Assembly: GCF_009931435.1 (NCBI RefSeq)
Contig: NZ_CP043414.1
DNA from: Escherichia coli
Lineage (GTDB): Bacteria > Pseudomonadota > Gammaproteobacteria > Enterobacterales > Enterobacteriaceae
Length of the DNA stretch: 64,000 nt
Direction: 5' to 3' (one strand)
Positions 61,774-62,812 of the stretch are shown here, in pieces. A model generated the notes under the pieces. It saw only the letters and a list, made by a program, of their open reading frames with translations. It did no database searches and was not told the DNA's origin. A program made the position numbers and the translations under genes. The first letter of the stretch is position 1, and the number at the start of each line of letters is the position of its first letter.

Positions 61774-62812
61774 TTCATAATTCGCCGGATTAACGATATT
61801 TGTCTGATTAATAATCAGACCGGATTAATGTTGGTGTATTGATTACACCAACATTAATTTTCCTGGAAATATATTCTTTAAGTTCATTTAAAGCCAACTG
61901 CCTGACGTTTCTCTCCGAATATTCCATTATATTAATGTTGATTTGTTGACCAACTTCGCCCCTGTATGCTGGTATCAACTCTCTTTTAGACTGAACAAGC
62001 CACTCCGCCCCCTCCCTTTGCGGAGCAGCCTGCATTTACACTCAAACTGTTAAGATGATAAATGTGGTAAATCTGTTGGTACTAACATAAAAACGTTTAC
62101 GCCACAGGAACAGCCTGATCCACCGGTAACCCCATCGCCGACGTTCGAGTGCCAGTTAGAGTAACGCGCACAGATGACTGCACGCAGTGCCCTGTCAAAG
62201 AGGCCATCGTTCCTGTGACAGCTGGCAGCCTTCGTTTAACTTCACTTAATTTGGCTCTTGGGGGGGCTTACCGAACAGATGACGTAGTCACACCTATTCA
62301 ATTTTTCACCACTTATTGGAGTAAACACCCATAACCATTTTGTGCGGCATGTTAATCCATTAAAACACCTTATTTATTGTCAAATCTTCTTTAATGATGG
62401 TCAATAATAGTTTTATGTTCTATTTATTATCATTAAAACTTGTTTTTTTACTAGTCGAGCACAAAACGCATTAAGACTATTCCTAACACCTCAGGGCAAA
62501 GTTCCTGGCTAATATAAAATGCAAGTAAGAATTGAACGTTATATTGCCAATAACCTTATGAAACTGAATGTCTTTTTCTTCTTATCAAAAAAGCAATATT
62601 TTCATTTTTAGTAAATATTGACTTAACCATGGAATTCCTTTTCTGTTCACATATTGACACTCATCAGGAAAAAAACATAAATTTAAGCCCAATCGAAAAT
62701 AATTAAAACTTAATCTCGTTTAACCTATATTGATATGTGCTACGTATCTTATTTACTTCCGATTTACTAACAACACTGAATGTACTTGTAAAAATTACAG
62801 GTTTGGAAAGTA

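Follow-up and report, generated by a model that had tools for sequence, protein, structure and literature searches.

The region between ykgO and ecpR of Escherichia coli was analysed in a 64,000-nucleotide stretch of DNA (the window), near whose 3′ end it occupies positions 61774-62860 (1,087 bp). The list of open reading frames (ORFs) of the window places ykgR, ykgM, ykgO, ecpR and ecpA here in this order on the plus strand; the RefSeq order at near-identical E. coli loci is ykgR-ykgM-ykgO-(ykgL)-ecpR-ecpA-ecpB-ecpC, and ecpR, ecpA, ecpB and ecpC lie downstream in the RefSeq annotation of 99%-identical DNA. An earlier sequence-only reading had described the interval as a strongly AT-rich leader of about 1 kb preceding ecpR and ecpA. 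A long interval of non-coding appearance is indeed present, extending from the ykgO stop at 61773 to the ecpR start codon, be it ATG 62861 or GTG 62813. Its AT-richness, however, proved uneven. The G+C content (GC) of 61800-62812 was 36.5%, compared with 49.4% for the whole window; it was 34.5% at 61774-61999 and 49% at 62000-62337, where 200-bp windows reached 51-55%. The 523 bp of 62338-62860 (29.4% GC) were the sole strongly AT-rich part of the intergenic region, and no other 500 bp of the 64 kb were as AT-rich as those from 62301 (28.8% GC). The intergenic region is a composite of four parts, namely a terminator, the annotated ORF ykgL, a spacer of intermediate GC content and the AT-rich ecp block. 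Of these, very probably only the right-hand ~520 bp (62338-62860) serve the ecp (mat) operon.

The AT-rich block lies directly upstream of ecpR-ecpABCDE, and the ecpR product matched the NCBIfam family NF047921 at 334 bits (cut-off 300). Its upstream regulatory portion was placed at 62338-62653 on the plus strand (28.5% GC). The locus was compared by BLAST and MAFFT with the loci of EcpR relatives in five Klebsiella species and a Pantoea; the scan of the genome collection for EcpR returned Klebsiella and Pantoea and no Escherichia other than E. coli, so that the comparison has no member at intermediate distance. Homology of the E. coli sequence with the Klebsiella and Pantoea regions upstream of ecpR was limited to 62338-62684, began at the motif TTTTGTGCGG at ~62340, and reached 66-69% identity to the Klebsiella oxytoca group. 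Within it, three elements were essentially invariant across the genera: TTAAGAnTAnTCnTAAC at 62471-62487, AAGwTCCTGG at ~62499-62509, and TTGACAC…AAAAA…TAAATT at 62654-62683. The final ~500 bp before ecpR were AT-rich in every locus examined, Klebsiella and Pantoea included. The upstream neighbour of ecpR in K. oxytoca was a different one, a divergent ABC-transporter-like gene, at the one locus for which upstream ORFs were listed. By this cross-genus comparison, 62338-62860 is the ecp/mat control region of ~520 bp. The left ~560 bp (61774-62337), to which nothing ahead of ecpR corresponds in Klebsiella or Pantoea, would then be Escherichia-specific DNA outside the control region. One of the compared genomes, K. 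oxytoca NBRC 105695 (NZ_BCZK01000002.1, 112168-118704; locus L017), carried a second ecpR-like gene (55% identity) ~7.5 kb downstream, with an AT-rich upstream region of its own and a TTCCT-N17-TTCCT pair at -442.

The first two invariant elements coincide with a predicted activator site at 62472-62506 on the plus strand, composed of an RcsB-type box and two TTCCT boxes. The putative RcsB/RcsAB-type box, TAAGACTATTCCTA (62472-62485), is contained in TTAAGAnTAnTCnTAAC. It has a single mismatch to the RcsA-RcsB consensus TaAGaatatTCctA (PMC3950696), which no other site in the 64 kb matched better, and it matches the RcsB box TN(G/A)GAN4TC(T/C)NA (PMC7913699) exactly. TTCCT box 1 (62480-62484) lies inside it, box 2 (62502-62506) follows 17 nt after box 1, and the arrangement TTCCT-N17-TTCCT was present in all ten E. 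coli alleles. Relative to the transcription start deduced below, the boxes would be located at about -212 to -186, and their positions were invariant from E. coli to Pantoea. In the work of Martínez-Santos in 2012, EcpR reportedly binds two distal TTCCT boxes, and the pair at 62480-62506 is what we take to be these distal EcpR binding sites. Activation of mat by heterodimers of MatA and RcsB has been described (PMC5651002). Elsewhere in the window, further very AT-rich 500-bp stretches (30-33% GC) were seen at 34600-35250, ~13250-13800 and ~41150-41700, and an exact RcsB-box match, TAAGAATCGTCTTA, occurs at 34967-34980 inside the first of these.

The core sigma-70 promoter of ecpRABCDE was assigned to 62654-62692 on the plus strand, with a -35 hexamer TTGACA (62654-62659), an 18-nt spacer and a -10 hexamer TAAATT (62678-62683). 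Among the promoter-like sequences of the region, TTGACA-N18-TAAATT scored highest, matching at 10 of 12 positions, and TTGACAC, the A-run and TAAATT were kept in all E. coli alleles, the five Klebsiella species and Pantoea. According to the passage of PMC10038029 that cites Martínez-Santos 2012, EcpR acts together with IHF in promoting transcription of ecp, whose promoter is located 121 bp upstream of the ecpR start codon. The K-12 annotation of matA comprises 591 nt (196 codons) and is equivalent to a start at GTG 62813. Because 62813 minus 121 gives 62692, provided that the distance was counted from the 196-codon start, as we infer, transcription would begin at ~62690-62692, 8-9 nt past TAAATT; the same arithmetic in MG1655 leads to 311457. 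Among the E. coli alleles examined, the A-run of the promoter spacer (62669-62675) is A8 in K-12 MG1655 and BW25113 and A7 in all others. The hexamers are accordingly 19 nt apart in K-12 and 18 nt apart in the window, and in Klebsiella and Pantoea their spacing is 17 nt; the 19-nt spacing of K-12 might contribute to the weak expression of Mat in that strain.

The true start codon of ecpR is probably ATG 62861, and the 196-codon matA of K-12 (NC_000913.3) is then 16 codons too long. This start is favoured because the 180-position EcpR profile NF047921 covers residues 17-195 of the 196-aa ORF, because the ORF of K. oxytoca starts at the corresponding ATG and is preceded by an in-frame TAA, and because a Shine-Dalgarno sequence, GAGG (62846-62849), is placed 11 nt upstream of it. 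RefSeq annotation by the Prokaryotic Genome Annotation Pipeline (PGAP) likewise gives an ecpR of 543 nt beginning at ATG 62861. With this codon and a transcription start at ~62692, the 5′ untranslated region (UTR) of ecpR would be ~169 nt in length (62693-62860, plus strand) and not 1 kb, and the word leader does not suit the interval as a whole. The UTR is AT-rich and predicted to be curved, and its fold was not significant (z = -1.3). It includes a mini-ORF of three codons, ATG GCA AAA TGA (62818-62829), which is kept in K-12 with AAA changed to AAG and is absent from Klebsiella.

The allele in the window is rare. The intergenic region was 91-93.5% identical in nearly all of the 5,063 matching complete E. 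coli genomes and at least 97% identical in 16 of the 5,063, while the flanking ykgR-ykgMO and oxidoreductase DNA was 96.5-98% identical. Divergence over most of the intergenic region is close to neutral. Between the boxes and the -35 hexamer the sequence appears constrained, since it differed by 0.5-1.1% from B2-, D- and E-type alleles as against a synonymous divergence (dS) of 0.05-0.13 in the flanks; its divergence from A and B1 types was 5.5%. The distal AT patch 62338-62470 was 13.5-18% divergent from most alleles and ~4% from RMDEC465 and Z0117, and the proximal portion 62471-62760 was nearly identical to AST217, FCI48 and B2-type alleles. On alignment, the window allele reads as a mosaic. 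This segment-wise variation agrees with the lineage-linked polymorphism of the mat promoter that Lehti et al. are said to have described in 2013. Relative to the closest genome, RMDEC465 (99.2% identity over 1,039 bp), six of the eight differences cluster within 44 bp (62375-62418) of the distal AT patch; this patch varied more across the alleles than any other spot, and gene conversion or a hotspot of mutation could account for it.

Binding data for H-NS and a prediction of curvature, both of which the sequence-only reading had named as checks, came out in its favour for the right-hand block. The K-12 counterpart is the promoter island 310529_398 (ecpR/ykgL), one of 78 such islands, and was bound by H-NS in all three studies that used chromatin immunoprecipitation with microarrays (ChIP-chip; PMC3661553); the island maps, approximately, to ~62445-62843. 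Repression of ecp by H-NS is stated in the passage of PMC4746245 that cites Martínez-Santos 2012 and Lehti 2013, and ecpA was derepressed in an hns mutant of Klebsiella pneumoniae (PMC4746245). A rough wedge model predicted that the promoter lies between two strongly curved segments, 62350-62490 and 62700-62850, and both curvature peaks were below the 1st percentile of the window. This two-peak geometry fits bridging by H-NS. The description of the interval as an H-NS/IHF-controlled fimbrial promoter is supported, from the literature and the curvature, for 62338-62860; it does not extend to the left ~560 bp, which lack a counterpart in Klebsiella and Pantoea.

Several points weigh against this assignment. 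The placement of the transcription start, of the TTCCT boxes and of an IHF site depends on secondary citation, and the curvature values come from a rough model. If the 121 bp are counted from the RefSeq ATG, transcription would start at ~62740, where a weaker TTAAAA-N17-TATATT is found; this alternative was ranked second, its hexamers being weaker and not conserved in Klebsiella or elsewhere outside E. coli. The high-affinity H-NS motif TCGATAAATT, allowing up to two mismatches, had no match in the region and showed no window enrichment. The strict IHF consensus WATCAANNNNTTR had no exact match in the region and showed no window enrichment either; real IHF sites often deviate from the consensus, and the IHF site assumed here is a presumptive one. 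Finally, a hexamer scan gave five promoter-like sites in comparison with 3.8 ± 2.2 in dinucleotide shuffles, which is no enrichment.

In a different explanation, the AT-rich block is mainly an inert promoter island, a dense group of cryptic promoters that H-NS keeps silent as a side effect when horizontally acquired DNA is assimilated. By the PlatProm definition, a promoter island has a minimum of 8 predicted start points per 100 bp along 300 bp or more. The K-12 counterpart is among the 78 islands and is associated there with predicted foreign genes (PMC3661553), the genomic surroundings of the ecp cassette differ between Escherichia and Klebsiella, and promoter-like sites are found on the minus strand at 62433-62376, all of which speak for an island. 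Against an inert island speak the RcsB/TTCCT boxes and a promoter with fixed hexamers that are conserved across genera within DNA of 66-69% identity, and a proximal segment more constrained than synonymous sites; the promoter-like matches were not above those of the shuffles. We consider this explanation possible though rather doubtful. It and the organised control region proposed here are not mutually exclusive, and both can hold.

The left ~560 bp begin directly after ykgO (61630-61773), which follows ykgM (61370-61633) and ykgR (60904-61005), all on the plus strand. ykgM is present both in the ORF list and in the RefSeq annotation of relatives; ykgR, also in the ORF list, is annotated in the 99.2%-identical genome and in K-12, and its product is a small membrane protein of 33 aa identical to YkgR of K-12. 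Within the terminator segment 61774-61862, two tandem hairpins are predicted on the plus strand at 61802-61820 and 61824-61858 (together 61802-61862). In the second, 51 nt past the ykgO stop, a 15-bp stem without mismatch precedes UUUU, and its inverted repeat is 100% complementary. Folding of 61774-61880 gave -32.2 kcal/mol (z = -4.9), and none of 200 shuffles folded as well. In other alleles the terminator stem was kept, the changes being confined to the loop or yielding a U·G pair. At 61824-61858, a stable hairpin containing GC pairs, a U-run and a location after the last gene are combined, as is the case for intrinsic terminators, and the tandem hairpins presumably serve as such a terminator for the ykgMO operon, which is regulated by Zur. 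The program's terminator scan made no call at 61802-61862, where the U-run is short. A match of the terminator hairpin to mir-15, obtained with Rfam at a permissive threshold, was dismissed as a chance match (E = 0.89).

The two short ORFs named in the sequence-only reading, of 75 aa on the minus strand (61808-62035) and of 61 aa on the plus strand (62149-62334), were both present exactly as given, and the poor coding character ascribed to them was borne out, their frames being broken in most alleles and carrying no coding signature. The statement that the interval has no convincing ORF held in this respect and failed in another, the 75-aa ORF being the annotated gene ykgL (b0295 in K-12; also in RefSeq), convergent with ykgO. 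The ykgL frame was intact in four of the ten E. coli alleles (this window, RMDEC465, K-12 and O104:H4) and frameshifted, truncated or interrupted by a nonsense codon in the other six (O157, JJ2434, AST217, FCI48, EC19 and Z0117), several of which PGAP itself flagged as frameshifted. When substitutions of the observed number and type were simulated, amino-acid changes averaged 14.3 ± 1.9, compared with the observed 12 for K-12 (P = 0.17) and 11 for O104 (P = 0.075), and one out-of-frame control was as "synonymous" as the ykgL frame. Neither maintenance of the frame nor purifying selection was evident from the ten alleles and the simulation. Homologues were confined to Escherichia and ranged from 54 to 103 aa in length, no family match was found in Pfam or NCBIfam, and the additional contigs bearing ykgL (L018-L021) showed ordinary Escherichia arrangements throughout.

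Could ykgL nevertheless be a genuine, lineage-restricted small-protein gene, which would make the left third coding DNA and not spacer? It is annotated both in K-12 and by PGAP and is intact in the four alleles listed. The ratio of nonsynonymous to synonymous divergence (dN/dS, by NG86) among the intact alleles was 0.29-0.36, with variable sites distributed 7/9/15 over the codon positions; this allows weak constraint where the ORF is intact and counts against its dismissal. Its convergent transcription with ykgO, the transcripts of the two overlapping, has also been reported (PMC12288877), and reads of ykgL rise together with those of ykgMO during zinc limitation (PMC12279244). The overlap and the rise are consistent, most simply, with read-through past the ykgMO terminator; the literature searched mentions ykgL at the RNA level only and includes no report of a YkgL protein. 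Against such a gene stand, besides the six broken alleles, the non-significant simulation with its equally scoring out-of-frame control, and the lack of a protein family or of homologues outside Escherichia, the features of the DNA itself. The 3′ 50 nt of ykgL (its last ~17 codons) are the palindromes of the ykgMO terminator, and a predicted hairpin of the minus-strand RNA (61995-62033; 14 bp, -23.4 kcal/mol, z = -3.8), which begins at the G of the AUG, would sequester the start codon. The hexamer scan revealed no sigma-70-like promoter within ~340 nt upstream. We judge ykgL to be a doubtful, unconstrained ORF and regard a genuine small-protein gene as unlikely.

Between ykgL and the control region lies the spacer of intermediate GC content (62036-62337, 46.7% GC), found in Escherichia only and given no strand. 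It had no homology to the Klebsiella or Pantoea regions upstream of ecpR and no family match in Rfam at a permissive threshold, and no signal of RNA structure was detected on either strand (z = 0.05 and -0.79). With a divergence of 6-8% compared with the flanking dS of 0.05-0.13, the spacer appears to evolve at about the neutral rate. The 61-aa ORF (62149-62334, plus strand) is a chance ORF inside this spacer and was broken in all nine other alleles, the closest relative included. It crosses a poly-G tract (62260-62266) whose length ranges from G5 to G7 among alleles, and this length variation alone breaks the ORF in other strains. The tract is G7 in the window, G6 in RMDEC465 and Z0117, G5 in K-12 and O104:H4, and AGGGGG in O157 and B2-type alleles.

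The differences in length of the poly-G tract (G5-G7) and of the A-run in the promoter spacer (A7/A8), together with a few imperfect inverted repeats of 12-17 nt, are the observations that could speak for a non-coding RNA or a phase-variation switch hidden in the region, be it a small RNA (sRNA) in the spacer, an invertible promoter like fimS or a tract subject to slipped-strand mispairing. With 5-8 nt, though, the tracts fall on the short side for switching by slipped strands, the spacer is devoid of a structural signal on both strands, and Rfam returned nothing but the chance mir-15 match. Nor is the promoter flanked by long inverted repeats, and all genomes among the matches listed aligned as one colinear piece, none of them inverted; the short, imperfect nature of the repeats in AT-rich DNA and this colinearity rule out an invertible switch of the fimS type. 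A hidden RNA or switch of any of these kinds is most improbable, and the intergenic region is one without an invertible switch, an sRNA or a conserved small ORF.

Taken as the control region of the ecp operon, the right-hand block suggests the following model. H-NS would coat, and probably bridge, the two AT-rich curved segments that flank the sigma-70 promoter and thereby silence ecpRABCDE. EcpR (MatA), together with RcsB, would bind the RcsB-type box and the two TTCCT boxes at 62472-62506, ~190-210 bp upstream, and bending induced by IHF would help to relieve the silencing and to activate transcription from ~62692, the mRNA carrying ~169 nt of leader ahead of the ecpR ATG at 62861. A positive feedback loop would result, ecpR being the operon's first gene. 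The anatomy of the region, its conservation across genera, the positions of promoter and boxes and the decay of the ORFs come from the present analysis; binding by H-NS, the dependence on EcpR, RcsB and IHF and the 121-bp distance come from the literature. More speculatively, the patch 62338-62470 could be a hotspot of recombination or mutation through which the rare allele rewires silencing by H-NS and the control of the pilus by temperature and pH, and, separately, antisense transcription that leaves the AT-rich block through ykgL could couple regulation of the pilus to ykgMO, a ribosomal operon of zinc starvation, in the manner of an excludon; we hold these ideas to be quite improbable. The ECP/Mat fimbriae are a near-universal colonisation factor of E. 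coli, and their expression varies between lineages owing to promoter polymorphism. For annotation, ykgL (b0295) behaves as unconstrained DNA over a terminator and should probably not be treated as a gene. Current understanding of the ecp system is unchanged by these results.

The stretch consists of the already characterised ecp/mat regulatory region and, beside it, a terminator and an annotated ORF of doubtful standing. Its nearest equivalents are the ecp (mat) regions of enterohaemorrhagic E. coli EDL933, enteropathogenic E. coli E2348/69 and neonatal meningitis-associated E. coli IHE3034 (Martínez-Santos et al. 2012, J Bacteriol 194:5020; Lehti et al. 2012, 2013), with which it shares the locus, the gene order and, if the 196-codon start was the one counted from, the published promoter distance. 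They likewise have two far-upstream TTCCT boxes in AT-rich DNA, and repression by H-NS and dependence on EcpR/MatA and RcsB would be common to all; the window differs from them in carrying a rare mosaic allele. A wider likeness exists to bgl, to leuO (BglJ-RcsB) and to the RcsA-RcsB targets cps and rcsA, where an auxiliary regulator of the FixJ/NarL type also acts with RcsB, at boxes of the same types (TaAGaatatTCctA and TN(G/A)GAN4TC(T/C)NA), and where relief of H-NS silencing has been proposed (PMC3950696, PMC7913699, PMC5651002). Unlike these, the putative ecp site is unusually far upstream (~-200), has a second, half-site-like TTCCT 17 nt away, and is served by an activator encoded by the first gene of its own target operon. 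Among the promoter islands of K-12 described by Shavkunov, Panyukov and Ozoline (PMC3661553), the K-12 orthologue is on the list and bound by H-NS. In contrast to a plain promoter island, the island here spans only ~62445-62843 and not the left half of the intergenic region, and it encloses a conserved promoter together with an activator site.

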